Part shown: piece by piece, positions 19,601-64,000 of the stretch
Layout: the number at the start of each line of letters is the position of its first letter
Position numbering within the stretch: the stretch's first letter is position 1
Origin: Nemertoderma westbladi
Lineage: Eukaryota; Animalia; Xenacoelomorpha
DNA: 64,000 nt
Reading direction: 5' to 3'
NCBI GenBank assembly: GCA_032718475.1
Contig: JAUCBJ010008016.1
Location: forward strand, 1 to 64,000
Notes under the pieces: generated by a model
What the model saw: the letters and a program-made list of their open reading frames with translations, nothing else
Told to the model about the DNA's origin: nothing
Databases searched by the model: none
Program-made: the position numbers and the translations under genes

Positions 19601-19800
19601 TATCGGTAGGCGGTGTCTCGTCGTGTCTACTCTACTCTACCACGATATACTTACTGTATCGGTAGGCGGTGTCCCGTCGTGTCTACTCTACTCTACCACG
19701 ATATACTTACTGTATCGGTAGGCGGTGTCTCGTCGTGTCTACTCTACTCTACCACGATATACTTACTGTATCGGTAGGCGGTGTCCCGTCGTGTCTACTC
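7659..19800. repeat. Tandem array of 56-bp units (51-bp variant), about 220 copies, with higher-order repeats
   Basis: Consensus gtaggcggtgtcYcgtcgtgtctactc(tactc)taccacgatatacttactgtatcg. Rare variants recur at 3137-bp and 2979-bp spacing. Confidence 0.98.
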
Positions 19801-19967
19801 TGCCAGTCTCCGACCTCATTAAGGACATTTAGGACGGTATCCAAGGTTTCCTTACTGGCCGCCTCCGCTGGCTCCAATGAGCCCAAGTTGCCGTCGATTT
19901 TACCCAATAAGTTCTCCACAACGGGAACTATTCCGCTACCGGCCTCCTCGGATACGAGATTACTTAA
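19767..19967 (-). CDS. Coding exon of unidentified host gene (67 codons, LSNLVSEEAG...QSRHDGTPPTDT)
   Basis: Acceptor gttgttgtttcag, open frame, donor ACA|GTAAGT. GC-richer than the flanking intron. Its 3' end is the terminal unit of the tandem array. Confidence 0.75.
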
Positions 19968-24700: not shown

Positions 24701-24959
24701 TACAGCAATCAAATAAGTACAACGGTCCGAGATGCATTTCTTCATCTTCGAAGTTTGGCTAAAATTAAACGGTACCTCAGCAGACATGACCTTGAAATCT
24801 TAATTCACGCCTTTGTCACAAACAAACTCGACAGCAACAACTCATTATATTATGGATTACCCTCGAAGTCAATCAAAAAATTACAATATGTACAGAATTC
24901 CGCAGCGCGACTGCTAGAGGGCGTTAAGAAACAAGAGCACGTCACTCCAGTCCTTAAAC
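21741..24959 (+). pseudogene. LINE ORF2 (APE endonuclease + reverse transcriptase), frameshifted and interrupted
   Basis: YNARSI, AITEAWL, LGDFNFH, GHTLDLV, LSDH; LLDLSAAFDTVDH, LPQGSVLGP, YADDTQLY. Frameshifts near 22940 and at the long G run (~23528-23543). Cut by the BEL LTR at 24960. Confidence 0.9.
23031..23672 (+). repeat. 30-bp GC-rich minisatellite (~21 units, LGVPTGGATG-like) inside LINE ORF2
   Basis: Units such as ctgggcgttcctacggggggcgctactgga, lying between the EN and RT domains. Confidence 0.92.
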
Positions 24960-26568
24960 TGTTCGCGGTATTTCAACTTTCCATAACGCGAGTTGAATAT
25001 TTTTGTATTTATTTAAAATTGATTATTCCGATATTACTACTGGGTGCGGGACCATGGGTTTTGGGCACATTTAATAAACTGGGGGCGATTTATGGGCGAA
25101 CTTTGGGGCAACTTACAGGGTACGGGAATAATTTCATAGTTATAAGGGCCAGGGGGGATGGAAAATGCAAGCAGTATTCAGGTTAGCCTGAGTACTATTA
25201 GGCCCTGGCCAACTTCCTGCTGCCTGTAGGGGTGGATTTGGTAATGCGCCAGGCCTAAAGGACAAGGACAGCCCTTAGCGGTCCCTGGCCAACAGCAGCC
25301 ATTACGAGACTGAAAAGAACTCGGACCGCTGACTGCTTGTGTCAGGGATTTGCGACGGGCACCGACGGCCCCTTAGTAGCCAAGCCGTTCTGGTTCTCGA
25401 TGATCGAACCCCGGGGTTCGTGAGGGGTGGAGCGGACACGCGAACGGGTGGCCAACTTAAGACTGCCCCCTGACCTAAGCCGTACTGGTTCTCGATGACC
25501 GATCCCTTCGGGGTTCGCGAGGGGTGGGACGGACATGCGAAAGGGCTGGCCACAGGACGGGTTTGACGAGAACTGCCCTTAGCGGTCTCTGGTCAATGGC
25601 AGCTACTACGAGACTGAAAAGAACTCGGAACGCTGACTGCTTGTACTGGGATTTGCGACGGGACCCGACGACAGACCCCTTAGCCAAGCCGTACTGGTTC
25701 TTGATGATCGTTCCCTTCGGGGTTCGTGAGGGGTGGAACGGACACGCGACGGGGTCGAAAGACAAAGGACTAGACTCGACTAGACTCTACTGGCCTACCG
25801 ACTGTTCGGAGCAGTTTCTTGGCTGCCGAAGCGACTACGAGCCTGAAACGGACTCGGAAAGCCTAGGTGGTTGGGTTTCTGTGATGAACCGACGGACCCC
25901 TAGCCAAGCCGTTCTGGTTCTCGATGATCGAACCCTTCGGGGTTCGTGAGGGGTGGAACGGACACGCGAACGGGTCCACCGACACGACAGACTCCTAGCC
26001 AAGCCGTACTGGTTCTCGATGACCGAACCCTTCGGGGTTCGAGAGGGGTGGTACGGATACGCGACAGAGTCTACCGACTGGACCGACCCTTAGCCAAGCC
26101 GTGCTGGTTCTCGATGATCGTTCCCTTCGGGGTTCGTGAGGGGTGGAACGGACACGCGACAGGGTCGACCGACACCGACACTACGGCACTAAGACTGGGA
26201 CCGAGGGAAAATCTGGGGAACATTAGGTAGGCTAAAATTCTGAGCGAACAGTGGGTTATTAAATAATCTACCGTAGGGATTTATATTATCGTGTATAATT
26301 ATTGTGAATATTTGGTGTATATTGATTTGGGGAAGCCCAAAATTATTCTTAATCAGGTTTCAATGATGTTGAACAGGTTTCAACTATAGGAAGTTACATT
26401 AAAGAGTATATCCAACTAATGCAGCTTTTTATCAACCGCAAACTTGCATCTTAGAAAATATTCCCTCCCCACAATCAATATCCAGTGACTGGCCGGGGCT
26501 CGGTGGTCTGTTAAGTCACGTCTCCAGCATCGGCGTTTTTCCCCCCTGGTGTTGGGATAACGGCAACA
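24960..26568 (+). repeat. 5' LTR of the BEL element (1609 bp)
   Basis: Direct repeat of 37758-39365 and 41260-42868; TG...CA ends. Confidence 0.97.
25381..26160 (+). other. Six ~65-nt hairpin units (kink-turn-like internal loop, UUCG cap) in the LTR; also present in LTR2 and LTR3
   Basis: Consensus ccgtWc-tggttctc-GAT-GA-Y-cgaaccc-TTCG-gggttcg-N-GA-gggg-tg-gWacgg at ~25383, 25477, 25686, 25906, 26001 and 26096. Confidence 0.75.
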
Positions 26569-26696
26569 AAATTAAGAATAATTATATGGTTAATTTTGAC
26601 GGGGTGTCAAAATTAAGAATAATTAATGCGGTTAATTTTGACAGGGTGTCAAAATTAAGGATAATTACGGTCAACTTCAACTGGTGGAAGTTGAGA
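26569..26696 (+). promoter_or_regulatory. PBS-position region without TGG: three CAAAATTAAGRATAATT copies and perfect hairpins
   Basis: 26571-26583 (attaagaataatt) is the exact reverse complement of LTR 26341-26353. Hairpins TTAATTTTGAC-N5-GTCAAAATTAA occur twice, plus tcaacttc...gaagttga. Confidence 0.7.
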
Positions 26697-26860: not shown

Positions 26861-27052
26861 ATGGAAGTATCGATCACACCCATTGATATAATTCAAGTTG
26901 AGCCAGGAATCTGGCACGTCGAAGTTGAGGTACAAGGAACGAACGTTGGACGATTCAGGATTACTGTTCGGGTGGTCCAAGCTGAGTACAATACCTACGA
27001 GGAACTGTTTTACGACATCGCGTATCTAGCCATCGACGAGGCGTTACAATGA
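26861..27052 (+). CDS. Small upstream ORF (63 aa) overlapping the gag start by ATGA
   Basis: ATG start and protein-like sequence; its TGA overlaps the gag ATG at 27049. Confidence 0.45.
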   Translation: MEVSITPIDIIQVEPGIWHVEVEVQGTNVGRFRITVRVVQAEYNTYEELFYDIAYLAIDEALQ

Positions 27053-30000
27053 CAACAAATAACGTATCCGATACCGACGAGATGGATCACCACACAGACT
27101 CGGAAGCCGACGAGGTACCAAACGTCAAGAACATGACCCGTCGGTTAGGGGCTCTTAAAGGCGGAGTAACCCGAGCTTACCAACGGATGGAGAAACAACT
27201 CAAGGGAGTCAAAACCCCCCTCAATGAGGTACAAACTCAGCTTCAAAGTATCCGAAATATCCTACAGCGGTACGAAAGGATGATACAGGCGTACCAAGAG
27301 CTCGTCCCCCCCACCGATCAAGAAAACTACCCCAAGTTGGAAGAACACGTTGTACATCTAGATGGGTTCCGCAAACAACACCGGAGGACCCTCAGCCTTG
27401 TGAGAGGCTATGAGGAACAGTATTACAAGAGGGCTGACGCGGAATCAGTACGATCCTCCAGCATTAGGACAGCAGTACATCGAAAGAGAACGGGGTCCGC
27501 TAGAAATCAGCACTCCAGCGCTAGGAGCGAGATATCCGGCTCAGCGCGCAGTTCTTAAGAGGCGCCGCCACTCCGAGACCAACTGCGAGAACGGAAGGCA
27601 TTAGCCCTCAAAGCTCGGATGGAAGATGAGTATATTCAACTGCAAGCCGAGCAGGATGTATTAGCCGCCGAAACACAAAGGCGAGAGGCCGAACAAGCGG
27701 CCGAACGGCAGGCCGAACAACGCAAACAGGAGGCCGAACAACATAGACAAGAGGCCGAACGACAGGCCGAACTACGTGAACAGGAGGCCGAACAACGTAA
27801 ACGAGAGGCCGAACAACGTAAACGAGAGGACGAACGGCAGGCCGAACAACGCAAACAGGAGGCCGAACAACGCGGACGAGAGGCCGAACGAGAGATCGAA
27901 CAACGTAAATGGGAAGCGGAAATGCGTAAACAACACGCCGAGGCCCAAGCAATTCTCATCCACAAAAAGAATGCGGATATTGCAAAACTCGCAGAATACG
28001 AAGCCGCACTTATCGAACGAGATATTCAACTCTACGAGGACTGGGAAAGGGATATAGATCAGGAATATGAACCAATTCCGGTACCGGAGTTAGAAAAGTC
28101 ATTTACACCAACAGCGGCGAAACCTCCGAAACCCGAGATCCCGCCTACCAAACAGTCTACGCTATCGGCACAAGCCCCGGTGTTCCATCCCCCACCGGCT
28201 ACGCTAAAGAATGAGGAACCTTATTTCCCATCCAACACCACGACAGCGAGTGTACCCAAGTACGAGCCTGAAAAGGACTCGGAACGGGACGCCACTCCCC
28301 GATCGAACAACCCATTTACATCAACACCACAAACTCGTAGCCGCGTCATTATTAAAACCCCACCTATTATTGATCCATCAAGTATGGGAGTGAGTGCCAA
28401 TAACTATAACCCTCTGAGTCACTCTAGTTCAGACGACGTCAGCATCATCCGGGCGTTGGAGAACCGCCTTGCCATGCCTAAGATGGAGATCCGCACCTTC
28501 GAAGGAGATCCCGTCGATTACCTCAGATTCAAAAAACGGTTCTTTGCGCAGATTGGATCAACGGACATAGCCGAAGCACAGAAATTGGTATATTTATCGC
28601 AATACTTGGGTGACAAACCACGCAGAATTGTTGCATGTTTTGAAGGAGGTTCTCAGGAGGCATACTATGACGCATGGAAAACTCTAGACAAAAGATACGG
28701 AAATACCGGAACTATAATTAATAAAACTCTAGAGAGACTGATAAAGGACGCGGGATCACTAGGGGACCCACAGAACATACAGGAATTCTCCGACTCTATG
28801 AAAGATGCCTATTATACTCTGAAACCCTTAAATAAGGAGGACCAGGTGAACAACATTCTAAACCTCCGACAGATCGCACGGAAATTCCCCGGATGGCTAC
28901 AAAGTAAGTGGGCTTATAAATGTGTAGATCTCCGGCGCAGACATCCAGATCGAGATCCTAGCTTCCTCGAAATGTCGGCATTCCTGGACGATATCTCCGA
29001 AGCCATGAATGACTCGATGTTTTCAAAACAAAGTCTCGCAAAGTTGGACGGAATAGAGAGCAACTCCAGGAGTAAGATAATCCCTCCGAAACCGAGATTC
29101 CGCCCCCCACCGGTAAGTACGATGGCCATTACCATGGCCGAGGATTCCGACGACGAAGACTACGAGGAACCGACATCCGCTGAGGAATGGGCATGTTATC
29201 TCGCGAGTTGGGCACCCGAAAGGGAAGGCATCACAAATTCCCTGCTCTGTCTCTTCTGTGGGGAGAAACACAAAGTGGAATTCTGCAGAAAGTTTCAGTT
29301 TGCCGAACTCGTCCCACGCTTCAAGGCGATAATGAAACACCGAGGATGCTTCCGGTGTCTTGGAACAGGTCACTATGTTCGGGAGTGCGACCAAAGATCA
29401 TGCTGTGCTGTCTGTAACGACCAACGCCATCACACGCTCCTCCACATCCCCGCGAACTTCGATTTCACTACCCTCCCCTTTCGGATCGAAGCCAGGCGAA
29501 GAGGAGAAACAAACCACGTCTTCAAAGGAACCCGTACAACCCAACGGAGAGAAACCAACCCGTTTAAAATCTACACCGATACACCACAAGTAACCAATAT
29601 TTCGGCCACGATTAATCTTATAAATCGCCGCTACATGGTCTTCGCAAAGGTAATCCCAGTAAGGATCCAAGGAGTCGGCAAATCTTTGACGACACTCGCG
29701 TTCCTCGATAACGGGTCCGACGGAACCATCATCGACCGGGATTTCCTCGAGCAACTCGGCCTAGAATATGAACCTTGTAAACGGCCCATACAAACCATCA
29801 CCGATAACAAAGAAGTAGAGTCCGGGGAGGTGCAACTCCAGATGGAAGGAGTGATGAAGGGCTACGAAACGGCTAGGTTAACCATCAAGAACGCCTTGGT
29901 ACACACAGACCTTCGGGTGCGGTTCCGACAATCAGCCGAGTACGCCCCCCTCATACAATTGGACCGAGACGATGTAGACCTGAGGTGTCCGCAGTTGGAC

Positions 30001-33000
30001 GTGAACCGTATCACCCTACTGATCGGACTTGACACACCGGAACTACACATCCCCACCGGAGATATCGCTCGATCTATAAACCAGGATGATGGATTTTATG
30101 CGGAACGAACAATAATGGGACGGACCCTCTGCGGCATTAAGGAGGAAACTACAGACACCTATACCTACCTTCCTAAATGTCAGATTAAAGAAAATGTAAC
30201 CTCTGTGGGTTATTGCTCAGCTTCGGATCTTGACGAGGATTTGTTTCTGGAAACCGAGAAAACCCAACGAGAGATGACGAAATATTTTAATTTGGAGACC
30301 CAGGAGTTCGCGGAAAAGGACGAAAACCCATCCGAAGAGGACCAATATTGTATGGACGTTCTCGACCAGGCCACGTTTAAAGACGGACATTGGTGTTCAC
30401 CTATGTTGTGGAAGGACCCAAACAAACCAATGGCAAACAACGCCAGCATGGCACTTAGGCGACTTAAAGGGATTTTACGCCGGCTGAATGACCAACCCGA
30501 GATAAAGGAGAAGTATAATACCGTAATCCAAGGATATCTCGATGATGGATTAGCAGAAATGGTACCACGGAACGAACTGCAAGGCGGTAAAAGAACATAT
30601 TATCTCCCGACCCACTATGTAGTAGAAGCCCGCAAAGGTGGGAAATTCCGAGTGGTAAATGATGCTGCCGCTATGTACCAGGGCGAATCCCTAAACAGTC
30701 AACTTTATACGGGACCCAACATATATAGCACACTCATCGGCGTATTGATCAGGTTCAGGGAAAACCGGGTAGCATTCACCTCTGACATCAAGGCCATGTT
30801 TCATCAAGTTCGTACATTACCAAGAGACTCGGACTGTCTACGTATCCTATGGACGGATAAAACGCTTACTCAACAGGAGATTAGCCAACTCACGATAAAG
30901 GACGTAGACGTAATGCGTATGGTCGTCAGGATCTTCGGCGCTAAGGACTCGCCGGTAGCATGCAGTGACATGCTAAAGAGGACGGCAACTATGTGCGAAA
31001 ACGAGTTCCCTCCTACCGTCATAGAAACCATTCGACGATGCTTCTACGTGGACGACGGATGCGCCGGCGCGGATAATGTAGATGAGGCGTATCGGCTAGC
31101 AATGGGGATGGTAGAATGTCTAAAGAAAGGAGGGTTTCCACTCGTGAAGTTCAGATCCCACGACAAAACACTTATGGAAAAGTTTCCGGAGGACATCCGG
31201 CTGGAAAATAACAAGATGTATTCGGAGGAGGTGGAACATCGTGTACTCGGGATTGAATGGGACATAGAATCAGATGAATTCATCTTCAAATATAAACCCC
31301 TACCCAAGCCTATGACAAAAAGGGGATGTTTGTCGATAAAAAGTGCAATCTTCGACCCACTAAATTTCATATCTCCAGTAACCTTGGCCAGAATGAACCT
31401 GATTAAGGAAATGTGGATAGAAGGACTGGGATGGGACGAAGAGCTTCCCCCACACCTTAGCGTCAAATGGAGAAAATGGACGGAGCAGCTCGAACACCTA
31501 CATCTTATGCGGATACCTAGACCGTTTTTCCTCGATAAACTGCCCACCGATATCTTCCAGCTCCACACCTTTTCGGATGCTTCGAATACAGGAATCGGCG
31601 TAGTAACCTTCTTACGGAGACTAAGTAACGATGGAAACGGCGATACAAGCTTCTTATTCTCCAAAGCAAAGACAGTATCCGGGGAATTCGTAGCAACGAT
31701 TCCGAGGCTCGAGCTACAAGCTGCAGTTTGGGCAGTAAGACAGAATCGCATGGCCATGCGGAACCTACGGATCCCCATAGAATCTCAACACTTCTGGGTA
31801 GATTCAAGTATAGTTCTCTATTATCTCCACTCTCCATCACGGCGTCACACCACATTTGTTGCAAACCGAGCCACAGAGATTAAACAGTGTACCGGCCGAG
31901 AACAGTGGCATCACGTGAACGGGAAGGAAAACCCAGCGGACTTATCAAGCCGAGGCGCCACCCCAAAACAACTCGGTAAAAGTAAACTCTGGCTTACAGG
32001 CCCGGAATTCCTACGGCAGCCACAGTTAACATGGAGTACCCGATTCGACCCCGAACTCGACAGCGGAAAATACTCCGAGGACGATAAAGAGATCCGTAAA
32101 ATCCATCGAAGCAACGCGGTGGAAATTTATAGTTGCCTGACTGAGCCTGCAAAGGACTCGGGCAGGCACTATAACGTCGCGACGATTACTCAACTAGCGG
32201 CGTCCTTACATCGGTTGATCGAGCGAACTTCATCCATGAGACGGCTCGTCCACCACGTTGTAACCCTTCGCAACTTCCTACGGTGGAAAAACAACAAACC
32301 GATAGTTCAACGGAATATACAAGAACTTATTATCGCGGAGAAGTGTATTGTTAGATATGTCCAGAAAGAAAGTTTCCCCGATGAATGGGAACAACTTAGT
32401 GCGGGCAAAACGTTGAAACCGGACAGCCCAGTCTACCAACTGAGACCAATGATGGGAAAGGACGGACTGATCCGACTAAATACCCGGATGGCAAACGCCC
32501 CGGTCGAATATGAGGTCAAATACCCGGCGCTTCTGCCCGGAACGTCGACACTAGCTAAGCTATTAATTCTACAATGTCACGAGGACAACCACCACGCAGG
32601 ACAGAATTGGATTATAGCTAATATAAGACAAAGATATTGGATCACCCACATCCAGCCACTGATTCGGAAAGTGTTGAAACGTTGCTTCACCTGCAGACGT
32701 TACCTAGCGCCACCAATCACACAAAAGATGGCCGACTTACCAGCCACCCATCTACAAGCGGATTCCCCGCCATTCTACGTCACCGGAGTGGACTGTTTCG
32801 GACCGTTCACGGTTATTGAACGACGATCCAACATCAAATGCTGGGGAGCCATCTTCACCTGCCTAAGATCTAGGGCAATTTACCTAGATATCGTGGTAAA
32901 TCTGACACAACACGCATTCATCAACGCCCTGCGTCGGTTCGTGGCGAACAACGGGACATGCCGCCACATGTATTCCGATAATGGTACAAACTTTGTGGGA

Positions 33001-33750
33001 GGAGAAAGAGAACTTAGAGAGGCGATCGAGGGATGGTTTACCGATAACACCGCATCCCAAGTCTGGAAGGAACACCAGATACAGTGGCACTTCCAGACCC
33101 CCTTAGCACCCCATACGAGCGGGGTATGGGAGAAACTGATCGACCTAGTGAAACGATCCATGCGCGTCGCTCTAGGCGATACCCGGGTAACCCATGACAC
33201 CCTCCGCACAACATTCTGCGAGATCACGGCTACCCTGAACAACCGACCCATTGTTCCTATCCGCGACGACCCCACAGACCTGGAACCCCTCACTCCTAAC
33301 CACTTACTGGGGAGACCCAAAACCCACCTCCTCCCGGAAACCATGTTCCCGGATCCCAACGAGATCGCGAAACATACAAACTGGAAAAAGGCCCAAGCAT
33401 TGGCAGCGCATTGGTGGAGAATTTGGGCCCAGGAGTACCTCATAACCCTCCGGACCAGGAGGAAATGGAACAACACCTACCGGAACGTCGCAGTTGGCGA
33501 CATGGTACTAGTTAAAGAAGATCTCAAAGACCGCGTTCACTGGCCTGTGGCGCGGGTCGTGACCATACACCCAAGCAAAGACGGACTTGCGAGGACTGTG
33601 ACGATACGAACGAAAGCGGGCCACTACCAACGCCCCATCCAGAAGCTGTGCCTTCTTGAAGGCAATGACAGTGGTGATTCTACGAGAGGTGATAAGTTCC
33701 CTACTCAAGATCCTGCTGCGGACATTGGTGACAATTATAAATGCGTTTAA
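27049..33750 (+). CDS. BEL/Pao Gag-Pol polyprotein (Gag, PR, RT, RNase H, IN) with one in-frame TAA at 27556-27558
   Basis: ORFs 27049-27558 and 27619-33750 share a frame and the gap is open. Motifs: FEGDPVDY, triple Zn knuckle, FLDNGS, FYVDD, FSDAS/IPRLELQAA/WVDS, HHCC, GVDCFGP/YSDNGTNF/GVWE. Confidence 0.95.
27680..27910 (+). repeat. Coding EAEQR/QAE heptad-like repeats in Gag
   Basis: Repeated gaggccgaacaacg; charged helical translation. Confidence 0.85.
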
Positions 33751-34025
33751 ACCCTTCTCATCATGTTGACAAACTCTATAAAACTGTGATTTATCGACAA
33801 CGAATTATGGACCCCCCTTAAACCAACTGTAACCACGCAAATGGTATTTGTGTTTCCTCGTGTGTTATGTGGAGTCCAGCATCACCCTGCAGATGTTTCG
33901 ACTGACGCAGGGTCGTTTATGTATTGTTTACCCTGATTTTGGTCATCGGGACCTACGATATTGGATTATTGGAAATGGAAAAGATTTGAAGTGGAATTCA
34001 TTGTATTCATCGCAGTATGTTATGT

Positions 34026-34447
34026 TGTCCGTTGCGTGCGCGGTTCGGGGCGTAGGCGGTGTAACGAGTCCAGCTGTAGATCCCGGATTGCCGCGCAACA
34101 CCCCCTCTATCCCGTTATTCTGGTGGGTCCATGGTGCATCCACGTGACTTCGACGATAGAGGGTTTTATGTTTCTCAGTCGCGTTATTCTGGTGGGACCG
34201 TTACGTGGATTTTGGGGCGTAGGCGGTGTAACGAGTCCAGCTGTAGATCCCAGAATGTTGCGTAACCCCATCCCACATGACTTCGTCGACTGAGCTTTAT
34301 GTTGTTGGGAGTGTTATTCTGGTGGGTCCCTGGTGCATCCACATGACTTCACTCTCAGCGTCTTCATTGTCCGTTACGTGCGCAGTTTGGGGCGTAGGCG
34401 GTGTAACGAGTCCAGCTGTAGATCCCAGATTGCCGCGTAACACCCCT
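34026..34447 (+). repeat. Three ~170-bp spaced repeats between pol and ORF3
   Basis: ggggcgtaggcggtgtaacgagtccagctgtagatcc at 34047, 34214 and 34389; gttattctggtggg three times. Confidence 0.85.
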
Positions 34448-34991
34448 TCCACGACAAAGATTAACCAAAGAAAATGATTGAATATAGTTGGAAACGATGA
34501 AAAGGATCAGACAACTCTACTATAAACCTGAATGATGACGCGTATACTGATGAAAATGTAATGATGCGCACCCTGGTGCTGCGCTTATAACAATGATGAT
34601 AGCCGGGGGGCTATAAACCCAATGATGATGTGGAAATAAATAAATGTGAAATAAATGGTGGAAATAAATGTGTTGAAATATGTGGAAATAAATGAAATGA
34701 GATGAAATGATAATGAAATGAAAAAAGACAAAAAAAAGGTATAAAAAAAAGGTCAAAGAAAAGAATTGGAAAAAAAGGACAAAAAAGTCATAAAAAACTG
34801 GTTGGATATTATGTATAGCTATAGTAACTGTAAATGCTGAATGTATTAGCAATAAGATGATAGATGCCTATAGCAATGTTATTAATAAACTGAATTAAAT
34901 AAAAAACTGAATTATTCTGCTATCGCTATAGTTTCAGACTTTCTGGACTTATAATTAACTGATCTAATTTGTAACGGATATAATCGTAAAT

Positions 34992-37592
34992 ATGGACCCA
35001 AATCGCCAAATTATCGGCGAATTACGTAACACGATAGATCTACTGGAATATTCGCAACCTGGATCCCCTGACTTTGATACAAATTGGAACACTCTGCTAA
35101 ATGAGAACGTACGAGACGTTAAATTCACCGGGCGAGAGGGACCGGATTCTAAGAATCTACGAGCCCTCCGGTTAGCCGATGCTAGTACGAGACTGAAAAG
35201 AACTCGGAACGCAAAGGCAACCGGAGGGGACGATTCGTCGTTTTGGGAAACGTTCCGGCAGAGCGTCTACAGATCCCGATGTTTGATCTACGACAACGAG
35301 GGAAACGCGACGCCCACCTCGAAAGCGATTACGTTGGCGAGATGTCAAAGTTTCGTCGACGACAAGAGTACGTACCTCGCCCACTGGGGAAACCTGTCGG
35401 AGTGTACGGCGACGCTTCGAGAGGAACGCATATCGATTATCCAGAACCGAGACGACTACCAGGAAAAGTATGGGGCGAAAGAATACGGTCGATCCTTAGT
35501 CGTCGTCCTCGGAACCCTGGACGGTTTGGTACTGGTGTGCCGAATATTCCCGACACCCAGACAGGAAGTGCGGGCAGCCGGAGCGATCTGGTTGCTGCCT
35601 CCGGAAATCCAAAAGATCCTCTTCGACTTCGACGTCATTAAAATCGGGTCGGATATCAAGGCAGACGTCCGGAACGACTACGCGAACGCTCCCGCAGGAA
35701 GAAACCGACGAAACGACCTCAACGCACTTAGCCATTGCATCGACACTCAAACGCTGCTAGCCTGGTTGCGATTCGCCGAGTTCATGCGAGGATTCCAAGA
35801 AGTGAGACCGACGAAATCCGGGATCGGCTACCTCGCTGTGCTCAACGGCGGTATCGACTTCAAACCCCAGAAATTCCGGGACTATAATAAAATATACGGC
35901 GGATACCCGGGATTAGAGATAAAGAGCGAGCGGGAGGGTCGATGGAAGGACGTCGATCGGAAGTGGACGATACACCAAAGGTGGGAGAATCCCGATCGAC
36001 GGAGCTATATCTACGTCGTTATGGAATGTTACACCGTCGCTAAGTTTATCTGCAAGACTCTCGATAACCTTATTACGGCGGCCCCCCTTTCCTTCGTCGA
36101 CTACGACTGGAACGAGGTTATAAACCACGCGTTTAAAGCGGTCGAGAACATTACACCGGGAGAATCGAAAACGCCCGCCGTTATCAACTCCTGGGACGAG
36201 AGCGGACCTTACGATATCCCTACGATTACCGAGCTTCTCGGTGCGGAGGAGCCTCTGATCTCTTCGGAAGGGGAAGAGATATGGCTAAACGAGGGTGTTC
36301 TTCTCTCCACCCCGAAGCGACAACTCGAGCCGGAGGCCGCGTATGGACCGGCCGCCAAACGAGTTGCCTCGGCCGAACCGATAAAGAGAGCAGGCGTCTA
36401 CACCCCACGCGGCTCCGGTAGCCCCGCGAGAGAGGTAGCCACTACAGCTGCATTGAGCGACTTCGGCGACATATGCCAACGGTTATCCCCGTATCCTTTC
36501 CCGGGTGGCGAAGATTGGTCGTCGGAGATTCCGAGTACCAGCCACCAACGGACCCGCTCAGCGATACTGGTCGAGGAGGGCCCCAGCGATGCGCCGACCC
36601 CCGACGATCTCCTCGGTATCCCTCCGTCGAAAACCCCGGCACCTCTTCGCCGACCAGCGGTGGCTACTACACCCGCCGTTCCTCAGGACCCTATGCGACT
36701 AACCCGTTGGTACGCCGAGCAAACTGAATGGATCCACCGCCAGAAACGGTCGTCCGAGTTGAGACCAGCGGGACACAAAGAGGGTTATCGGAGCGAGAAC
36801 ATACTACGCAAAAGCCTAGCATTCCGCGGGCTACCGACCACCGAGAATATTCCGAAGAGCGACCGACGACTCGAATACTACGTCGGCGTCCCGATTCCGA
36901 TATTCCCCGGTCGAGAAATGCAGTTGGAGGTATGCGGCGACTGCGGCTCGGAGCAGTGCCCACGCGGCAGAAGGAATCGGGTTACCGATTCTTGCCTCCA
37001 GCTCCTCGGGATACTCTACTGCCCATACTGCGCGATATCGGGCCACGACGTTTCGGTCTGTCCGATCCTTTATAACCTCTGCACCACGTGCGGTTTCCGT
37101 GGACATTCCGCTAGCCCCCGCTGCTATATCAAATGTCCAACCAAAGACGTTACCGCTATGGGCAATATGGTCATGTTTGAGACATACGCAAACAGCCACT
37201 TAAAGACCAAGTTTCGGAGAAACGCTCGGAATATCGCGCAGGAGATGGCGTGCGGATATTTCTCCTTCCCGGAACGCCTCCACACGTCGGCCACGCTACC
37301 TTTCCATTACGTGGATCTGCTACTGAGCGCCGGATTATTCGGCCCATTCGAAGTCATTAGACGATTATATTCGTATAAAGAAGAGTTCGGTGACGGAGAG
37401 TGGTTTCTCGAGGCTCGCAACTCCGAGTTGGAAAGACGAACCGACATGATCCCGATGCCTTCGAAAGGAAGAGCCGCCAGGAGACAAGCCGAAGCGTTAC
37501 TCACGATGGACGTTGACGCTCCTCTACCAGCCATAGCGATCGATGAGAGTCGACGGGCGAAGAGACGAAAGGCGTATCAGAAAAAGAAATAG
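34992..37592 (+). CDS. BEL element ORF3: DEDDy (WRN/EXD2/Mut-7-like) 3'-5' exonuclease-like domain + low-complexity linker + CCHC-type zinc knuckles (866 aa)
   Basis: ExoI-like LIYDNEG, ExoII-like LPPEIQKILFDFDVIKIGSDIKADVR, CIDTQTL, SGIGYLA, ExoIII-like W...YIYVVMEC. C-terminal CPYCAISGH..C and CTTCGFRGH..C. No signal peptide or TM segment seen. Confidence 0.7.
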   Translation: MDPNRQIIGELRNTIDLLEYSQPGSPDFDTNWNTLLNENVRDVKFTGREGPDSKNLRALRLADASTRLKRTRNAKATGGDDSSFWETFRQSVYRSRCLIYDNEGNATPTSKAITLARCQSFVDDKSTYLAHWGNLSECTATLREERISIIQNRDDYQEKYGAKEYGRSLVVVLGTLDGLVLVCRIFPTPRQEVRAAGAIWLLPPEIQKILFDFDVIKIGSDIKADVRNDYANAPAGRNRRNDLNALSHCIDTQTLLAWLRFAEFMRGFQEVRPTKSGIGYLAVLNGGIDFKPQKFRDYNKIYGGYPGLEIKSEREGRWKDVDRKWTIHQRWENPDRRSYIYVVMECYTVAKFICKTLDNLITAAPLSFVDYDWNEVINHAFKAVENITPGESKTPAVINSWDESGPYDIPTITELLGAEEPLISSEGEEIWLNEGVLLSTPKRQLEPEAAYGPAAKRVASAEPIKRAGVYTPRGSGSPAREVATTAALSDFGDICQRLSPYPFPGGEDWSSEIPSTSHQRTRSAILVEEGPSDAPTPDDLLGIPPSKTPAPLRRPAVATTPAVPQDPMRLTRWYAEQTEWIHRQKRSSELRPAGHKEGYRSENILRKSLAFRGLPTTENIPKSDRRLEYYVGVPIPIFPGREMQLEVCGDCGSEQCPRGRRNRVTDSCLQLLGILYCPYCAISGHDVSVCPILYNLCTTCGFRGHSASPRCYIKCPTKDVTAMGNMVMFETYANSHLKTKFRRNARNIAQEMACGYFSFPERLHTSATLPFHYVDLLLSAGLFGPFEVIRRLYSYKEEFGDGEWFLEARNSELERRTDMIPMPSKGRAARRQAEALLTMDVDAPLPAIAIDESRRAKRRKAYQKKK

Positions 37593-37757
37593 TGGATTGG
37601 GATATTCCAGGAACATTTATCGAATATTTATTTTTATACAAACTCTAGGCCGAATTAATTAAAAACTATGCAATATTAAATTTGGGTTTTTTATATTGGG
37701 AATGACCTACGCAAACTCAATCGACCGACAGACTTCACGAAGGTCATTGGGGGGGAC

Positions 37758-39365
37758 TGTTCGCGGTATTTCAACTTTCCATAACGCGAGTTGAATATTT
37801 TTGTATTTATTTAAAATTGATTATTCCGATATTACTACTGGGTGCGGGACCATGGGTTTTGGGCACATTTAATAAACTGGGGGCGATTTATGGGCGAACT
37901 TTGGGGCAACTTACAGGGTACGGGAATAATTTCATAGTTATAAGGGCCAGGGGGGATGGAAAATGCAAGCAGTATTCAGGTTAGCCTGAGTACTATTAGG
38001 CCCTGGCCAACTTCCTGCTGCCTGTAGGGGTGGATTTGGTAATGCGCCAGGCCTAAAGGACAAGGACAGCCCTTAGCGGTCCCTGGCCAACAGCAGCCAT
38101 TACGAGACTGAAAAGAACTCGGACCGCTGACTGCTTGTGTCAGGGATTTGCGACGGGCACCGACGGCCCCTTAGTAGCCAAGCCGTTCTGGTTCTCGATG
38201 ATCGAACCCCGGGGTTCGTGAGGGGTGGAGCGGACACGCGAACGGGTGGCCAACTTAAGACTGCCCCCTGACCTAAGCCGTACGGTTCTCGATGACCGAT
38301 CCCTTCGGGGTTCGCGAGGGGTGGGACGGACATGCGAAAGGGCTGGCCACAGGACGGGTTTGACGAGAACTGCCCTTAGCGGTCTCTGGTCAACGGCAGC
38401 TACTACGAGACTGAAAAGAACTCGGAACGCTGACTGCTTGTACTGGGATTTGCGACGGGACCCGACGACAGACCCCTTAGCCAAGCCGTACTGGTTCTCG
38501 ATGATCGTTCCCTTCGGGGTTCGTGAGGGGTGGAACGGACACGCGACGGGGTCGAAAGACAAAGGACTAGACTCGACTAGACTCTACTGGCCTACCGACT
38601 GTTCGGAGCAGTTTCTTGGCTGCCGAAGCGACTACGAGCCTGAAACGGACTCGGAAAGCCTAGGTGGTTGGGTTTCTGTGATGAACCGACGGACCCCTAG
38701 CCAAGCCGTTCTGGTTCTCGATGATCGAACCCTTCGGGGTTCGTGAGAGGTGGAACGGACACGCGAACGGGTCCACCGACACGACAGACTCCTAGCCAAG
38801 CCGTACTGGTTCTCGATGACCGAACCCTTCGGGGTTCGAGAGGGGTGGTACGGATACGCGACAGAGTCTACCGACTGGACCGACCCTTAGCCAAGCCGTG
38901 CTGGTTCTCGATGATCGTTCCCTTCGGGGTTCGTGAGGGGTGGAACGGACACGCGACAGGGTCGACCGACACCGACACTACGGCACTAAGACTGGGACCG
39001 AGGGAAAATCTGGGGAACATTAGGTAGGCTAAAATTCTGAGCGAACAGTGGGTTATTAAATAATCTACCGTAGGGATTTATATTATCGTGTATAATTATT
39101 GTGAATATTTGGTGTATATTGATTTGGGGAAGCCCAAAATTATTCTTAATCAGGTTTCAATGATGTTGAACAGGTTTCAACTATAGGAAGTTACATTAAA
39201 GAGTATATCCAACTAATGCAGCTTTTTATCAACCGCAAACTTGCATCTTAGAAAATATTCCCTCCCCACAATCAATATCCGGTGACTGGCCGGGGCTCGG
39301 TGGTCTGTTAAGTCACGTCTCCAGCATCGGCGTTTTTCCCCCCTGGTGTTGGGATAACGGCAACA
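37758..39365 (+). repeat. 3' LTR of the BEL element (1608 bp)
   Basis: Preceded by the PPT and followed by TSD TAAAC. Confidence 0.97.
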
Positions 39366-39372
39366 TAAACGT

Positions 39373-41094
39373 TTGCATTGGTTACCTGTAAATTTACGGA
39401 TCAAATTTAAAATAGCTTTGTTGACATTCAAGTGTTTACATGGTGCTGCTCCTGCCTACTTGACCCATTTAATAACTCCCTATGTACCTCCACGACAATT
39501 ACTGTCTGCTGATAAGGGACTTCTATTTGTACCGCAGTTTTACTTGCATAATTACGGGAGACTCGATAACCTTATTACGGCGGCCCCCCTTTCCTTCGTC
39601 GACTACGACTGGAACGAGGTTATAAACCACGCGTTTAAAGCGGTCGAGAACATTACACCGGGAGAATCGAAAACGCCCGCCGTTATCAACTCCTGGGACG
39701 AGAGCGGACCTTACGATATCCCTACGATTACCGAGCTTCTCGGTGCGGAGGAGCCTCTGATCTCTTCGGAAGGGGAAGAGATATGGCTAAACGAGGGTGT
39801 TCTTCTCTCCACCCCGAAGCGACAACTCGAGCCGGAGGCCGCGTATGGACCGGCCGCCAAACGAGTTGCCTCGGCCGAACCGATAAAGAGAGCAGGCGTC
39901 TACACCCCACGCGGCTCCGGTAGCCCCGCGAGAGAGGTAGCCACTACAGCTGCATTGAGCGACTTCGGCGAAATATGCCAACGGTTATCCCCGTATCCTT
40001 TCCCGGGTGGCGAAGATTGGTCGTCGGAGATTCCGAGTACCAGCCACCAACGGACCCGCTCAGCGATACTGGTCGAGGAGGGCCCCAGCGATGCGCCGAC
40101 CCCCGACGATCTCCTCGGTATCCCTCCGTCGAAAACCCCGGCACCTCTTCGCCGACCAGCGGTGGCTACTACACCCGCCGTTCCTCAGGACCCTATGCGA
40201 CTAACCCGTTGGTACGCCGAGCAAACTGAATGGATCCACCGCCAGAAACGGTCGTCCGAGTTGAGACCAGCGGGACACAAAGAGGGTTATCGGAGCGAGA
40301 ACATACTACGCAAAAGCCTAGCATTCCGCGGGCTACCGACCACCGAGAATATTCCGAAGAGCGACCGACGACTCGAATACTACGTCGGCGTCCCGATTCC
40401 GATATTCCCCGGTCGAGAAATGCAGTTGGAGGTATGCGGCGACTGCGGCTCGGAGCAGTGCCCACGCGGCAGAAGGAATCGGGTTACCGATTCTTGCCTC
40501 CAGCTCCTCGGGATACTCTACTGCCCATACTGCGCGATATCGGGCCACGACGTTTCGGTCTGTCCGATCCTTTATAACCTCTGCACCACGTGCGGTTTCC
40601 GTGGACATTCCGCTAGCCCCCGCTGCTATATCAAATGTCCAACCAAAGACGTTACCGCTATGGGCAATATGGTCATGTTTGAGACATACGCAAACAGCCA
40701 CTTAAAGACCAAGTTTCGGAGAAACGCTCGGAATACCGCGCAGGAGATGGCGTGCGGATATTTCTCCTTCCCGGAACGCCTCCACACGTCGGCCACGCTA
40801 CCTTTCCATTACGTGGATCTGCTACTGAGCGCCGGATTATTCGGCCCATTCGAAGTCATTAGACGATTATATTCGTATAAAGAAGAGTTCGGTGACGGAG
40901 AGTGGTTTCTCGAGGCTTGCAACTCCGAGTTGGAAAGACGAACCGACATGATCCCGATGCCTTCGAAAGGAAGAGCCGCCAGGAGACAAGCCGAAGCGTT
41001 ACTCACGATGGACGTTGACGCTCCTCTACCAGCCATAGCGATCGATGAGAGTCGACGGGCGAAGAGACGAAAGGCGTATCAGAAAAAGAAATAG
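39373..41094 (+). pseudogene. Chimeric open frame: LINE ORF2 C-terminal ~63 aa fused in frame to the C-terminal ~510 aa of BEL ORF3
   Basis: HWLPVNLRIKFK...NYGR|LDNLITAAP...; starts at TTG, with no early ATG. Confidence 0.75.
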
Positions 41095-41259
41095 TGGATT
41101 GGGATATTCCAGGAACATTTATCGAATATTTATTTTTATACAAACTCTAGGCCGAATTAATTAAAAACTATGCAATATTAAATTTGGGTTTTTTATATTG
41201 GGAATGACCTACGCAAACTCAATCGACCGACAGACTTCACGAAGGTCATTGGGGGGGAC

Positions 41260-42868
41260 TGTTCGCGGTATTTCAACTTTCCATAACGCGAGTTGAATAT
41301 TTTTGTATTTATTTAAAATTGATTATTCCGATATTACTACTGGGTGCGGGACCATGGGTTTTGGGCACATTTAATAAACTGGGGGCGATTTATGGGCGAA
41401 CTTTGGGGCAACTTACAGGGTACGGGAATAATTTCATAGTTATAAGGGCCAGGGGGGATGGAAAATGCAAGCAGTATTCAGGTTAGCCTGAGTACTATTA
41501 GGCCCTGGCCAACTTCCTGCTGCCTGTAGGGGTGGATTTGGTAATGCGCCAGGCCTAAAGGACAAGGACAGCCCTTAGCGGTCCCTGGCCAACAGCAGCC
41601 ATTACGAGACTGAAAAGAACTCGGACCGCTGACTGCTTGTGTCAGGGATTTGCGACGGGCACCGACGGCCCCTTAGTAGCCAAGCCGTTCTGGTTCTCGA
41701 TGATCGAACCCCGGGGTTCGTGAGGGGTGGAGCGGACACGCGAACGGGTGGCCAACTTAAGACTGCCCCCTGACCTAAGCCGTACTGGTTCTCGATGACC
41801 GATCCCTTCGGGGTTCGCGAGGGGTGGGATGGACATGCGAAAGGGCTGGCCACAGGACGGGTTTGACGAGAACTGCCCTTAGCGGTCTCTGGTCAACGGC
41901 AGCTACTACGAGACTGAAAAGAACTCGGAACGCTGACTGCTTGTACTGGGATTTGCGACGGGACCCGACGACAGACCCCTTAGCCAAGCCGTACTGGTTC
42001 TCGATGATCGTTCCCTTCGGGGTTCGTGAGGGGTGGAACGGACACGCGACGGGGTCGAAAGACAAAGGACTAGACTCGACTAGACTCTACTGGCCTACCG
42101 ACTGTTCGGAGCAGTTTCTTGGCTGCCGAAGCGACTACGAGCCTGAAACGGACTCGGAAAGCCTAGGTGGTTGGGTTTCTGTGATGAACCGACGGACCCC
42201 TAGCCAAGCCGTTCTGGTTCTCGATGATCGAACCCTTCGGGGTTCGTGAGAGGTGGAACGGACACGCGAACGGGTCCACCGACACGACAGACTCCTAGCC
42301 AAGCCGTACTGGTTCTCGATGACCGAACCCTTCGGGGTTCGAGAGGGGTGGTACGGATACGCGACAGAGTCTACCGACTGGACCGACCCTTAGCCAAGCC
42401 GTGCTGGTTCTCGATGATCGTTCCCTTCGGGGTTCGTGAGGGGTGGAACGGACACGCGACAGGGTCGACCGACACCGACACTACGGCACTAAGACTGGGA
42501 CCGAGGGAAAATCTGGGGAACATTAGGTAGGCTAAAATTCTGAGCGAACAGTGGGTTATTAAATAATCTACCGTAGGGATTTATATTATCGTGTATAATT
42601 ATTGTGAATATTTGGTGTATATTGATTTGGGGAAGCCCAAAATTATTCTTAATCAGGTTTCAATGATGTTGAACAGGTTTCAACTATAGGAAGTTACATT
42701 AAAGAGTATATCCAACTAATGCAGCTTTTTATCAACCGCAAACTTGCATCTTAGAAAATATTCCCTCCCCACAATCAATATCCGGTGACTGGCCGGGGCT
42801 CGGTGGTCTGTTAAGTCACGTCTCCAGCATCGGCGTTTTTCCCCCCTGGTGTTGGGATAACGGCAACA
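41260..42868 (+). repeat. Third LTR copy, from the tandem duplication
   Basis: PPT before it and TAAAC after it; shares variants with the 3' LTR rather than the 5' LTR. Confidence 0.95.
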
Positions 42869-43190
42869 TAAACGTTTGCATTGGTTACCTGTAAATTTAC
42901 GGATCAAATTTAAAATAGCTTTGTTGACATTCAAGTGTTTACATGGTGCTGCTCCTGCCTACTTGACCCATTTAATAACTCCCTATGTACCTCCACGACA
43001 ATTACTGTCTGCTGATAAGGGACTTCTATTTGTACCGCAGTTTTACTTGCATAATTACGGGAGACGGGCGTTCTCAATTGCGGCACCAACAATCTGGAAC
43101 TCCCTCCCGCAAGAAGTTAGAGATGCCACGACGCTGACTCTGTTTGAATCGCGACTCAAAACTCACCTGTACAAAGAGGAATATTGCTGA
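42869..43190 (+). pseudogene. C-terminus of LINE ORF2
   Basis: LHWLPV.RI.FKI..L.FK.LHG.AP.YL...GRRAFS.AAP.IWNSLP...F.SRLKTHL, a typical L2/CR1-group RT C-terminal extension. Confidence 0.9.
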
Positions 43191-63085: not shown

Positions 63086-64000
63086 CTTACAGCACTGCTT
63101 GTACCAGATCTGTTGCCTCTAATCCTTTCTATTACTTACCGCACTGCTTGTACCAGATCTGTTGCCTCTAATCCTTTCTATTACTTACCGCACTGCTTGT
63201 ACCAGATCTGTTGCCTCTAATCCTTTCTATTACTTACCGCACTGCTCGTACCAGATCTGTTGCCTCTAATCCTTTCTATTACTTACCGCACTACTTGTAC
63301 CAGATCGAGGGCCTCTAATCCTTTCTATTACTTACCGCACTGCTTGTACCAGATCTGTTGCCTCTAATCCTTTCTATTACTTACCGCACCGCTTGTACCA
63401 GATCTGTTGCCTCTAATCCTTTCTATTACTTACCGCACCGCTTGTACCAGATCTGTTGCTTCTAATCCTTTCTATTACTTACCGCACTACTTGTACCAGA
63501 TCTGTTGCCTCTAATCCTTTCTATTACTTACCGCACTGCTTGTACCAGATCTGTTGCCTCTAATCCTTTCTATTACTTACCGCACTGCTTGTACCAGATC
63601 TGTTGCCTCTAATCCTTTCTATTACTTACCGCACTACTTGTACCAGATCTGTTGCCTCTAATCCTTTCTATCACTTACCGCACTGCTTGTACCAGATCTG
63701 TTGCATCTAATCCTTTCTATTACTTACCGCACTGCTTGTACCAGATCTGTTGCCTCTAATCCTTTCTATTACTTACCGCACTGATTGCACCAGATCTGTT
63801 GCATCTAATCCTCTCTATTACTTACCGCACTGCTTGTACCAGATCTGTTGCCTCTAATCCTTTCTATTACTTACCACATTGCTTGTACCAGATCTGTTGC
63901 CTCTAATCCTTTCTATTACTTACCGCACTGCTTGTACCAGATCTGTTGCCTCTAATCCTTTCTATTACTTACCGCACTGATTGCACCAGATCTGTTGCAT
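63086..64000. repeat. 49-bp tandem array (more than 18 copies, runs off the window)
   Basis: Unit cactgcttgtaccagatctgttgcctctaatcctttctattacttaccg; the minus strand has GCG|GTAAGT in each unit. Confidence 0.97.

Follow-up and report, generated by a model that had tools for sequence, protein, structure and literature searches.

Our best explanation for the third open reading frame (ORF3) of a Nemertoderma westbladi BEL/Pao retrotransposon, held at a probability of roughly 0.4, is that it is a conserved BEL/Pao accessory gene, most likely for a counter-silencing factor that would bind or trim RNA 3′ ends. All coordinates refer to the window, the whole stretch of 64,000 nucleotides that was analyzed.

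A very young BEL/Pao element with atypical priming

The element comprises the following features.

22985-25186: older LINE reverse transcriptase ORF (RVT_1 match in Pfam), the insertion target of the element
24955..24959, + strand: 5′ target-site duplication TAAAC, at the element edge
24960..26568, + strand: 5′ LTR, 1,609 nt, TG...CA, with each downstream LTR differing from it at 5 places
26571..26583, + strand: position of the primer site, lacking TGG; its 13 nt form a perfect complement of LTR 26341-26353
27049..27558, + strand: N-terminal part of gag, closed by an in-frame TAA, in the frame of the next ORF
27619..33750, + strand: gag-pol ORF, with DUF1759, three Gag knuckles, protease, reverse transcriptase (YVDD), Peptidase_A17, integrase, and DUF5641
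37749..37756, + strand: polypurine tract (G-rich), abutting the 3′ LTR at 37758
37758..39365, + strand: 3′ LTR, followed by the target-site duplication TAAAC at 39366-39370
39562..43065, + strand: tandem duplicate of 36060-39562, with the 3′ part of ORF3, polypurine tract, a third LTR, and ~200 nt of flank

ORF3 is carried by a very young BEL/Pao retrotransposon, its youth evident from LTRs that differ at only 5 places in 1.6 kb. The element has TG...CA LTRs, a polypurine tract, and a 5-bp target-site duplication, and Pfam matches along its gag-pol ORF (Peptidase_A17 at E 4e-37, plus DUF5641 and DUF1759) follow the order DUF1759, Asp_protease_2, Peptidase_A17, Integrase_H2C2, DUF5641, which is the BEL-type Gag-PR-RT-RH-IN order. 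RVT_1 gave no score in this gag-pol and a weak score in the relative P0015. At 14.4 kb, with LTRs of 1.6 kb, the element exceeds the ranges in the ICTV profile (4.2-10 kb and 0.2-1.2 kb). The same profile lists as typical of Belpaoviridae, though not as a basis for classification, a tRNA primer-binding site downstream of the 5′ LTR; here, the first 8 nt after the 5′ LTR contain no TGG. We file the element under BEL/Pao by its Pol domains and describe its priming as atypical. The LTR-complementary stretch at the primer site reaches a length, 13 nt, attained by 2 of 3000 block shuffles, from which we infer self-priming-like initiation. No Rfam match was found within the element at E ≤ 1. Separately, the initial annotation did not mention the tandem duplication that takes in flank, LTR, and the 3′ part of ORF3 and whose two copies (36060-39562 and 39562-43065) have 5 differences.

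An intact ORF3 in the env position

ORF3 and its parts are as follows.

34932..34937, + strand: acceptor-like TTTCAG (putative), 54 nt 5′ of the ORF3 ATG
34992..37592, + strand: ORF3, 866 aa, intact open reading frame
35181..35212, + strand: 32 nt of ORF3 (about aa 64-74), 31/32 identical to an LTR repeat
35241..36071, + strand: predicted DEDD 3′-5′ exonuclease domain (RNase D/EXD2/Nibbler-type), aa ~84-360, from homologues, a language-model search, and fold searches
35292..35300, + strand: candidate ExoI D101-x-E103, favored by ungapped scoring
35301..35492, + strand: aa 104-167, an insertion if ExoI is D101, otherwise holding an ExoI strand (aa 147-153) without acids
35664..35666, + strand: ExoII D225, by alignment
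36012..36026, + strand: ExoIII Y341-x3-E345, by alignment
36159..36896, + strand: Pro/Ser/Thr/Glu-rich linker (38% P+S+T+E), poorly conserved, aa ~390-635
36933..37124, + strand: three tandem Cys/His zinc knuckles, aa 648-711, by motif and a profile match to TbRND
37125..37361, + strand: conserved extension 3′ of the knuckles, aa ~712-790, with invariant E, A, T, G, Y, and L columns in the family
37545..37589, + strand: basic C-terminal tail, possibly NLS-like, 8 K/R in 12 aa

As the initial annotation had described, ORF3 is fully open between the end of gag-pol and the polypurine tract, that is, in the env position. The motifs that it quoted are in place (YDNE at aa 100-103, LPPE at 202-205, IGSDIKAD at 218-225, IDTQ at 250-253, and YVVME at 341-345). 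Pfam returned 0 families for ORF3, and none of the marks of an Env glycoprotein (signal peptide, transmembrane anchor, or fusion-protein homology) was found; the sole strongly hydrophobic window, aa 168-186 (KD 2.08), corresponds to the strand pair that is conserved in the nuclease domain. The TTTCAG reported about 55 nt before the start codon is present, with no other ATG between the two. It is one of 7 pyrimidine-AG sites of this kind in the 1,241-nt spacer between pol and ORF3, no more than expected by chance, and a run on guessed RNA (X5) placed no joint at this acceptor, which is evidence neither way.

A predicted DEDD nuclease domain followed by zinc knuckles

Residues ~84-360 are predicted, concordantly by three methods, to form an RNase D/EXD2/Nibbler-type DEDD domain. 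Forty of the 41 matches listed by Foldseek for the ORF3 model were DEDD nucleases or chains containing one, with EXD2 the best among them (E 2.1e-3) and none at E ≤ 0.001. All of the best 50 matches listed by VIA-align belonged to the DEDD fold class, led by Nibbler (Z 11.0, rmsd 4.0, 186 aligned), and 25 of 30 ESM Atlas matches fell within a set carrying PF01612 (score 0.92, 42% of members). The fold searches and the ESM Atlas thus favor the DEDD/RNase D-like fold proposed at the outset and place it in the DnaQ-like RNase H class, on a model of low confidence: mean pLDDT was 40, with only parts of the nuclease domain at 50-68, and a single-sequence model was unusable (pLDDT 33). Sequence profiles reached EXD2 only at E 0.08-0.8. 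DJ-1 rows, the sole output of phmmer against the PDB (E 0.12-0.45), were dismissed as chance.

The nearest folds among the matches listed, Nibbler/Mut-7, EXD2, WRN exonuclease, Exd1, and Egalitarian, belong to the RNase D-like DEDDy branch. The context of ExoII and ExoIII aligns with EXD2, but identity to the Nibbler/EXD2/WRN branch is 11-17%, the ExoIII acid of ORF3 is E, and its ExoI is either displaced by an insertion or lost. No Nibbler, Mut-7, EXD2, WRN, Exd1, or Egalitarian member is nameable as the donor of ORF3. Of the closest folds, Nibbler, Exd1, RICE1, and Egalitarian are small-RNA or RNA-localization proteins.

Three C-terminal knuckles were found where two or three had been suggested. 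The first is atypical and without His (C648-x2-C-x4-C-x11-C); the others read C677-x2-C-x4-H-x4-C and C697-x2-C-x4-H-x5-C. The top match of the knuckle profile against the PDB was trypanosome RNase D (TbRND; E 3.6e-6), which also matched the ORF3 model (Z 8.2, rmsd 5.0, 191 aligned). According to its published description, TbRND likewise has a DEDDy domain followed by tandem CCHC knuckles, and its zinc fingers raise both the binding and the cleavage of RNA (PMC7797062); by this analogy, the ORF3 knuckles are predicted to bind RNA. TbRND is, however, a cellular guide-RNA trimming enzyme described with four knuckles and a 28-aa linker (PMC7797062), whereas ORF3 has three knuckles, a linker of ~280 aa, and an extra conserved extension; we read the resemblance as a likeness of layout. 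For the knuckle domain, the top ESM Atlas score was 0.86, to DUF8363, and such matches serve as leads only; the extension (aa ~712-790) gave no known family and no ESM Atlas match at 0.9 or more.

The active site and whether ORF3 cuts

The initial claim of WRN/EXD2/Mut-7-like motifs stood for ExoII and, with an Asp-to-Glu change, for ExoIII. D225 aligns with the Asp of EXD2 and of the homologous proteins P0001, P0002, P0008, and P0012. ExoIII reads Y341-x3-E345 in place of Y-x3-D, with E also in P0001 and P0002 and D in P0008, P0012, and P0013; because this acid is E, not D, ORF3 is filed as DEDDy-derived and not as a canonical DEDDy member. For YDNE as ExoI, scoring and alignments disagree.

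Ungapped scoring made D101/E103 the top ExoI window in aa 1-168, at 10.8 (32 of 5000 shuffles), where true members score 8-23 when left out one at a time. D101 outscored I150 against all five homologues, and its hydrophobic pattern agreed at 6 of 6 positions, which were picked by eye. MAFFT, hhalign (probability 98.65), and the MAFFT-based model instead put the ExoI column on aa 150-153 (Q151/R153 or I150/N152), with no acid. This register leaves 52 aa to the LP motif, against 101 from D101 and 45-59 in homologues. Once the D and E columns are removed, the two windows are near-equal (−1.8 and −1.0), and segment HMMs matched neither. A test for internal duplication of the helix-strand unit of ExoI gave no support (13/36 nt at offset 150, with better scores elsewhere). 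We lean toward D101/E103 as ExoI, followed by an insertion of ~55 aa, and the copy at 34992-37592 would probably be catalytic, through a predicted D-E-D-E-Y site.

If ExoI was instead lost at aa 150-153, ORF3 would be a pseudo-nuclease adaptor whose fold and knuckles bind genomic RNA for export, localization, or packaging, much as Egalitarian and Exd1 use dead DEDD folds. We consider this unlikely, though it survives better than the alternatives below. The non-acidic register with normal LP-motif spacing agrees with it, and model confidence peaks there (aa 141-150, pLDDT 65), but that model was built on the MAFFT alignment assuming ExoI loss and so is not independent of it. Four homologues (P0001, P0002, P0008, and P0012) have the whole acidic set and in four others (P0003, P0005, P0006, and P0013) it is apparently broken, while the knuckle module is retained; these broken sets, the nucleocapsid-like knuckles, and the basic tail would suit an adaptor, while the score and hydrophobic pattern of D101/E103 and the retention of D225 and Y341/E345 speak for an enzyme. 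A precedent is CERV of Cer1, described as an accessory nuclear protein made from spliced RNA that exports Cer1 genomic RNA (PMC10309623); on that description, it is an invertebrate LTR element protein handling genomic RNA, from another element class and likened by role. The anatomy of ORF3 fits a suppressor no better than an adaptor for exporting or packaging RNA. A counter-silencing factor that binds or trims could tolerate broken acidic sets with kept knuckles, which an obligatory cutting step could not.

ORF3 is not tied to self-priming

A role in replication itself, in which ORF3 acts on the element's own nucleic acids by trimming the self-primer, the 3′ end of the genomic RNA, or mismatched ends of the cDNA prior to integration, seems improbable. 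It would fit an element with no TGG at its primer site and an LTR-complementary stretch in its place, and the knuckles could carry the protein into the particle. DEDDy enzymes work on RNA and single-stranded DNA 3′ ends, and such a role is proposed in the literature (PMC5408684, PMC6431247). Yet ORF3 is a separate gene outside Gag-Pol, and several homologues apparently lack catalytic residues. Moreover, the related element L003 combines an intact ORF3 and a full D-E-D-D-Y set with a TGG-type primer site right behind its LTR. The gene thus occurs with either primer type, and on this one counter-example the suggested link between ORF3 and self-priming is not obligate.

ORF3 is an old accessory gene under purifying selection

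Among 1.84 billion representatives, ORF3 had 8 homologues at E ≤ 0.001, four of them with two matched stretches, and no close cellular homologue. Pfam found nothing in the nuclease part of 11 homologous proteins, and word-index searches gave 0 matches among 4,416, 7,995, and 202 candidates despite the existing homologues. A metagenome locus scan used 3 of the 11 proteins as queries and found relatives near P0004, P0006, and P0009; an 11-row alignment of the knuckles proved too divergent to be used in it. Homologues lie behind pol in two other BEL lineages. In the intact one, L003/L004, an ORF3 homologue directly follows a BEL pol with 28% identity over ~1,500 aa, and pol remains are found 5′ of the homologue in L002, L005, and L006.

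Near copies of ORF3 differ by 26 single-base changes, 19 of them synonymous against 24-30% expected, and L001 compared with L002, L005, and L006 gave pN 0.24-0.34 and pS 0.72-0.83 in both domains. The suggestion that ORF3 does not evolve neutrally is borne out by this synonymous excess, and both domains are, by these codon comparisons, under purifying selection. Between L003 and L004, by contrast, 584 codons hold 4 synonymous and 5 non-synonymous differences, no synonymous excess, and a diverged ORF3 sibling has 3 synonymous against 7 non-synonymous changes in one loop. Given the homologues and the synonymous bias among copies, ORF3 is more than a chance ORF, and with homologues behind pol in other BEL lineages and purifying selection it is an old accessory gene and not cargo. 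That it is a recently transduced host gene fragment, as LTR elements are described to capture DNA behind pol (PMC6431247) and as the L003-L004 comparison alone might allow, is very improbable and already largely refuted by a two-domain gene in the same place across BEL elements with 28% Pol identity, the synonymous excess, and the lack of a close cellular homologue among the 1.84 billion representatives.

Related genes in other retroelements

The Juno and Vesta families of rotifers are Gypsy-type, not BEL/Pao. The precedent of DEDDy extra ORFs in bdelloid rotifers, named in the initial annotation, proved correct: the LTR retrotransposons Juno and Vesta and Athena/Terminon elements are described with a DEDDy exonuclease ORF3 (PMC5408684). 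Compared by published description only, Juno/Vesta ORF3 shares with ours an RNase D-like exonuclease, a separate frame behind pol in the env position, and an altered acidic motif, DEED there (PMC5408684) and, if ExoI is D101/E103, D-E-D-E with E at ExoIII here. That account notes only a Cys-His-Cys motif, where ORF3 here has three knuckles and a conserved extension, and it reports that ORF3 had no clear link to copy number and that within rotifer families its evolution did not deviate significantly from neutrality (PMC5408684).

The literature searched contained no report of a DEDDy ORF3 in BEL elements. Malik et al., in 2000, reportedly described one of the C. elegans BEL-type elements Cer7 and Cer13 as encoding, downstream of its env, a 3′-5′ exonuclease together with a nucleocapsid-like domain; if so, the same idea in BEL/Pao has already been published. 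Cer7 and Cer13 are described as carrying a phlebovirus-like env (PMC9094657), whereas the element here has none.

ORF3 as a candidate suppressor of silencing

An accessory, host-facing role is favored because gag and pol are the only genes described for most BEL/Pao elements (PMC8742986) and ORF3 occurs with either primer type. As a counter-silencing factor, ORF3 would have a subgenomic RNA of its own, produced by splicing or started at an internal promoter, and might enter the nucleus by its basic tail. The knuckles would grip single-stranded RNA while the nuclease domain trims or blocks its 3′ end, acting by binding if catalytically dead. It could target small RNAs of the host, such as piRNAs and siRNAs, or the U-tails by which element RNA is marked for decay. 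A more specific version, which we find doubtful, is that a BEL/Pao branch encodes a Nibbler/Mut-7-like enzyme destroying or disarming host piRNAs and siRNAs, here with an active, rearranged D-E-D-E-Y site in which ExoI is shifted upstream by ~55 aa and the insertion (aa 147-156) supplies the edge strand. The anti-silencing role itself we infer.

It has long been asked how animal retrotransposons stay active in the face of piRNA silencing, and to our knowledge element-encoded suppressors of silencing have rarely been identified. ORF3 would be a concrete candidate, purifiable and assayable alone, and since complete and broken active sites occur within one family, cutting versus binding is directly testable. 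As ORF3 is invisible to Pfam, similar ORF3s have probably been overlooked or labeled as env. The rotifer cases and the present one jointly suggest that different LTR superfamilies have repeatedly taken DEDD nucleases into the env slot.

Structure and priming of the BEL/Pao copy

The element is inserted in an older LINE reverse transcriptase gene (RVT_1, E 8e-30, Pfam), and a TAAAC target duplication flanks it on either side. Its LTRs were delimited by self-comparison of the window.

24960–26568, 5′ LTR, TG...CA ends
27619–33750, long gag-pol ORF with the BEL/Pao domain set (Pfam)
34992–37592, + strand, ORF3, between pol and the PPT
37749–37756, PPT
37758–39365, 3′ LTR, TG...CA ends
39562–43065, tandem duplicate of 3.5 kb, 5 differences, covering the 3′ portion of ORF3 together with the LTR and flanking sequence

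The two LTRs differ at 5 positions in 1.6 kb in the self-comparison. An in-frame TAA at 27556–27558, which may be a nonsense change or a read-through site, cuts the first 169 gag codons off from the gag-pol ORF, and because of this split the copy, though young, is probably non-autonomous. The tandem duplication as a whole (36060–43065) has 4 nt of microhomology at its junction and may be real or an effect of assembly. Sampled words were present at 45–59% in four DNA runs of one organism, and two of these runs yielded 3,280 and 1,650 contig pieces 80–100% identical to the ORF3 gene, counts and identities that fit a diverse multi-copy family.

At 22985–23658, the 5′ end of the LINE reverse transcriptase ORF is fused in frame to a 30-nt minisatellite, from which a chance pentapeptide-repeat match results. 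Nested repeats (95 nt, three times) at 25261–26182 and in both other LTRs carry stable-looking hairpins closed by CTTCGG and had no Rfam match at E ≤ 1. The pol–ORF3 spacer (34025–34452 and 34480–34990) contains repeated 80- to 230-nt blocks and an AT-rich stretch with TATA-like and AATAAA motifs, a possible internal promoter for ORF3. The window also holds a 220-copy satellite array (7659–19801; 56-nt unit, 92% matches) and a second array with a 49-nt unit (63086–63998).

The self-complementary primer-site signature described in the initial annotation is real. No TGG follows the 5′ LTR, and the 13 nt at 26571–26583 are perfectly complementary to LTR positions 26341–26353 (2 of 3,000 block shuffles). 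This target sits ~25 nt 3′ of a TATA-like stretch, a placement also seen in Tf1-type self-priming; the signature would point to Tf1-like self-priming in a BEL/Pao element. The leader 3′ of the 5′ LTR is a 42-nt repeat in 2.4 copies with hairpins. An obligate tie between ORF3 and self-priming did not hold: ORF3 does not require it, because metagenome locus L003, a single counter-example, has an intact ORF3 homologue and a TGG immediately after its LTR end, as set by a match to the 3′ LTR of locus L004.

Domains of the ORF3 protein

ORF3 is open for 866 aa, contains all the motifs quoted in the initial annotation, and has three Cys/His knuckles, where two or three had been proposed. The acceptor-like hexamer is present upstream, though it is one of seven such sites in the pol–ORF3 spacer. 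Pfam returned 0 families for ORF3 at E ≤ 1. A full phmmer scan (1.84 billion representatives) gave eight homologues at E ≤ 0.001, the best at 1.7e-13, all unnamed or labelled hypothetical, and the parts they have in common with ORF3 are the N-terminal domain and the C-terminal Cys/His module.

Family profiles of the N-terminal domain matched human EXD2 weakly (E 0.79, 0.082, and 0.21), with the EXD2 ExoI, ExoII, and ExoIII regions all matched in the alignment, and 25 of 30 ESM Atlas matches fell in a set with PF01612 (0.92). An AlphaFold model built from a 7-row alignment was poor overall, with a mean pLDDT of 40. With Foldseek, 40 of the 41 matches listed were DEDD nucleases or chains holding one, including three exosome or 90S chains that we take to be Rrp6, and none of those listed reached E ≤ 0.001. 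VIA-align (48,161 chains) found Nibbler at Z 11.0 (rmsd 4.0, 186 aligned) and 22 chains at Z of at least 8; all 50 chains listed belong to the DEDD fold class. Because these weak lines combine, we put the probability of a predicted RNase D-type DEDD fold at roughly 90%, which supports the DEDDy-like assignment.

Trypanosoma brucei RNase D was the top match of the knuckle profile (E 3.6e-6), before Lin28 and retroviral nucleocapsids, and the ~80 conserved residues C-terminal to the knuckles matched no known family. In the homologue P0003, the knuckle-plus-extension module occurs in two copies and the nuclease domain is eroded. A 32-nt piece of ORF3 coding sequence (35181–35212), at the expected site of the family's N-terminal edge strand, agrees in 31 of its 32 positions with a repeat in the LTR (25303–25325 and 25602–25633).

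A candidate active site

D225 (ExoII) and Y341-x3-E345 (ExoIII) align unambiguously. The ExoIII residue is E in ORF3 and homologues P0001 and P0002, and D in P0008, P0012, and P0013; because P0001 and P0002 also have E, this residue reads in the alignment as a subfamily trait and not as decay of this ORF3 copy.

For ExoI, D101/E103 is somewhat the better candidate. It ranks first of the 849 17-aa windows scored for ExoI across ORF3; that score was reached in 26 of 300 whole-protein shuffles and, within aa 1–168, where ExoI must lie, in 32 of 5,000. It outscores the register at aa 150 in comparisons with 5 of 5 homologues, and its hydrophobic residues F,F,V,C,L,Y correspond to I,F,V,I,L,F in the family at positions chosen by eye. 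This placement requires a ~55-aa insertion (101 aa from D to the downstream LP motif vs 45–59). Gap-penalised methods (MAFFT, hhalign) favour normal spacing, which puts non-acidic residues at ExoI, as does the model built on the MAFFT alignment, and the two windows tie once D and E columns are dropped. The peptide at aa 147–156, a block picked after an alignment was inspected, has a score (13.0; 7 of 5,000 shuffles) comparable with that of the edge strand at the family's N terminus, and a permutation placing that strand after ExoI would agree with the score. A sibling contig from DNA run X4 has changes at codons 86, 90, 92, 94, and 99 (silent) and 109–118 and none at 100–108, too few for significance; one from run X1 has conservative changes at aa 147–149 and, by eye, keeps 150–153 with two silent changes.

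Distribution and selection of ORF3

A metagenome scan with 3 of 11 homologous proteins matched 156 stretches, and six loci were confirmed, five of them from one assembly. L003 and L004 are one family, 99% alike, in which an intact BEL gag-pol stands immediately before an ORF3 homologue that carries the full D-E-D-D-Y set; their Pol is 28% identical to that of the present element over ~1,500 aa. The second group comprises the broken copies L002, L005, and L006, with pol remains upstream of ORF3, and L001, with intact ORF3 and no pol match. BEL pol lies upstream of ORF3 in five of six loci, representing two lineages beyond that of the present element. The L001 homologue (8070–11133 of that locus) lies between ~75% identical repeats and adjoins sequence resembling exons of a host gene, of RhoGAP type as read from the translation; the locus is possibly an ORF3-only non-autonomous element or a domesticated copy.

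For near copies, 40 of 516 differences were listed; after removal of 3 outside the ORF and with 13 from one diverged contig set apart, the remaining 24 of those listed plus 2 others gave 26 single-base differences. Of these 26, 19 were synonymous vs 24–30% expected (P 3e-5 at 33%). The diverged contigs gave 5 silent vs 5 changed codons in one comparison and, in one variable loop, 3 vs 7 plus a stop in another. A ~80% identical contig aligns ungapped over 35721–36067 and 36482–37592, ending at the ORF3 stop codon; its linker differs, and that copy itself appears broken. In the group of L001, synonymous change is close to saturated (pS 0.72–0.83), pN is 0.26–0.30 in the nuclease and 0.24–0.34 in the knuckle module, and the linker is looser (dN/dS 0.24–0.45). 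L003 and L004 differ over 584 codons by 4 silent and 5 changed (nuclease 1 and 0), too few differences to inform. The synonymous excess among near copies and a pN far below pS in the L001 group argue against neutral evolution: both domains are under purifying selection, and the lineage carries the ORF3 gene as functional cargo.

Proposed role and precedents

Beyond the DEDD fold and its conservation, the mechanism is one that we infer. ORF3 is encoded apart from Gag-Pol, and the ICTV profile of Belpaoviridae has gag, pol, and env only (PMC8742986). Because ORF3 is separate, is not part of the customary BEL layout, is not tied to one primer type, and varies in its active site (complete in four homologues, apparently broken in four), its protein would do an accessory, host-facing job by cutting or binding. 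TbRND has a similar domain layout, and its knuckles bind single-stranded RNA and increase cleavage by the DEDDy domain (PMC7797062). We tentatively prefer a counter-silencing factor, one of the options in the initial annotation, at somewhat short of even odds. An RNA export or packaging adaptor is less likely but a serious alternative, as is, at slightly lower odds, a replication trimmer; a trimming role in this family would still be compatible with the TGG site of L003.

The rotifer precedent named in that annotation holds: DEDDy ORF3s are described for two rotifer LTR elements, Juno and Vesta, and for Terminons (PMC5408684, PMC6431247, PMC5718144). In the consulted main text of one survey, "exonuclease" appears 0 times (PMC3118150), and a BEL exonuclease was not found in the parts consulted of PMC3013669, PMC12440569, PMC11662393, PMC9094657, and PMC535339. 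The literature searched, mostly open-access and seemingly without Repbase Reports, yielded no BEL/Pao exonuclease case. Malik et al. in 2000 reportedly noted a 3′–5′ exonuclease with a nucleocapsid-like domain in Caenorhabditis elegans Cer7 and Cer13; if this is right, the novelty of ORF3 in BEL/Pao is lessened. ORF3 itself is real and conserved, and it represents, within BEL/Pao, a family of DEDDy-derived accessory proteins that have three knuckles and an unusual predicted active site.
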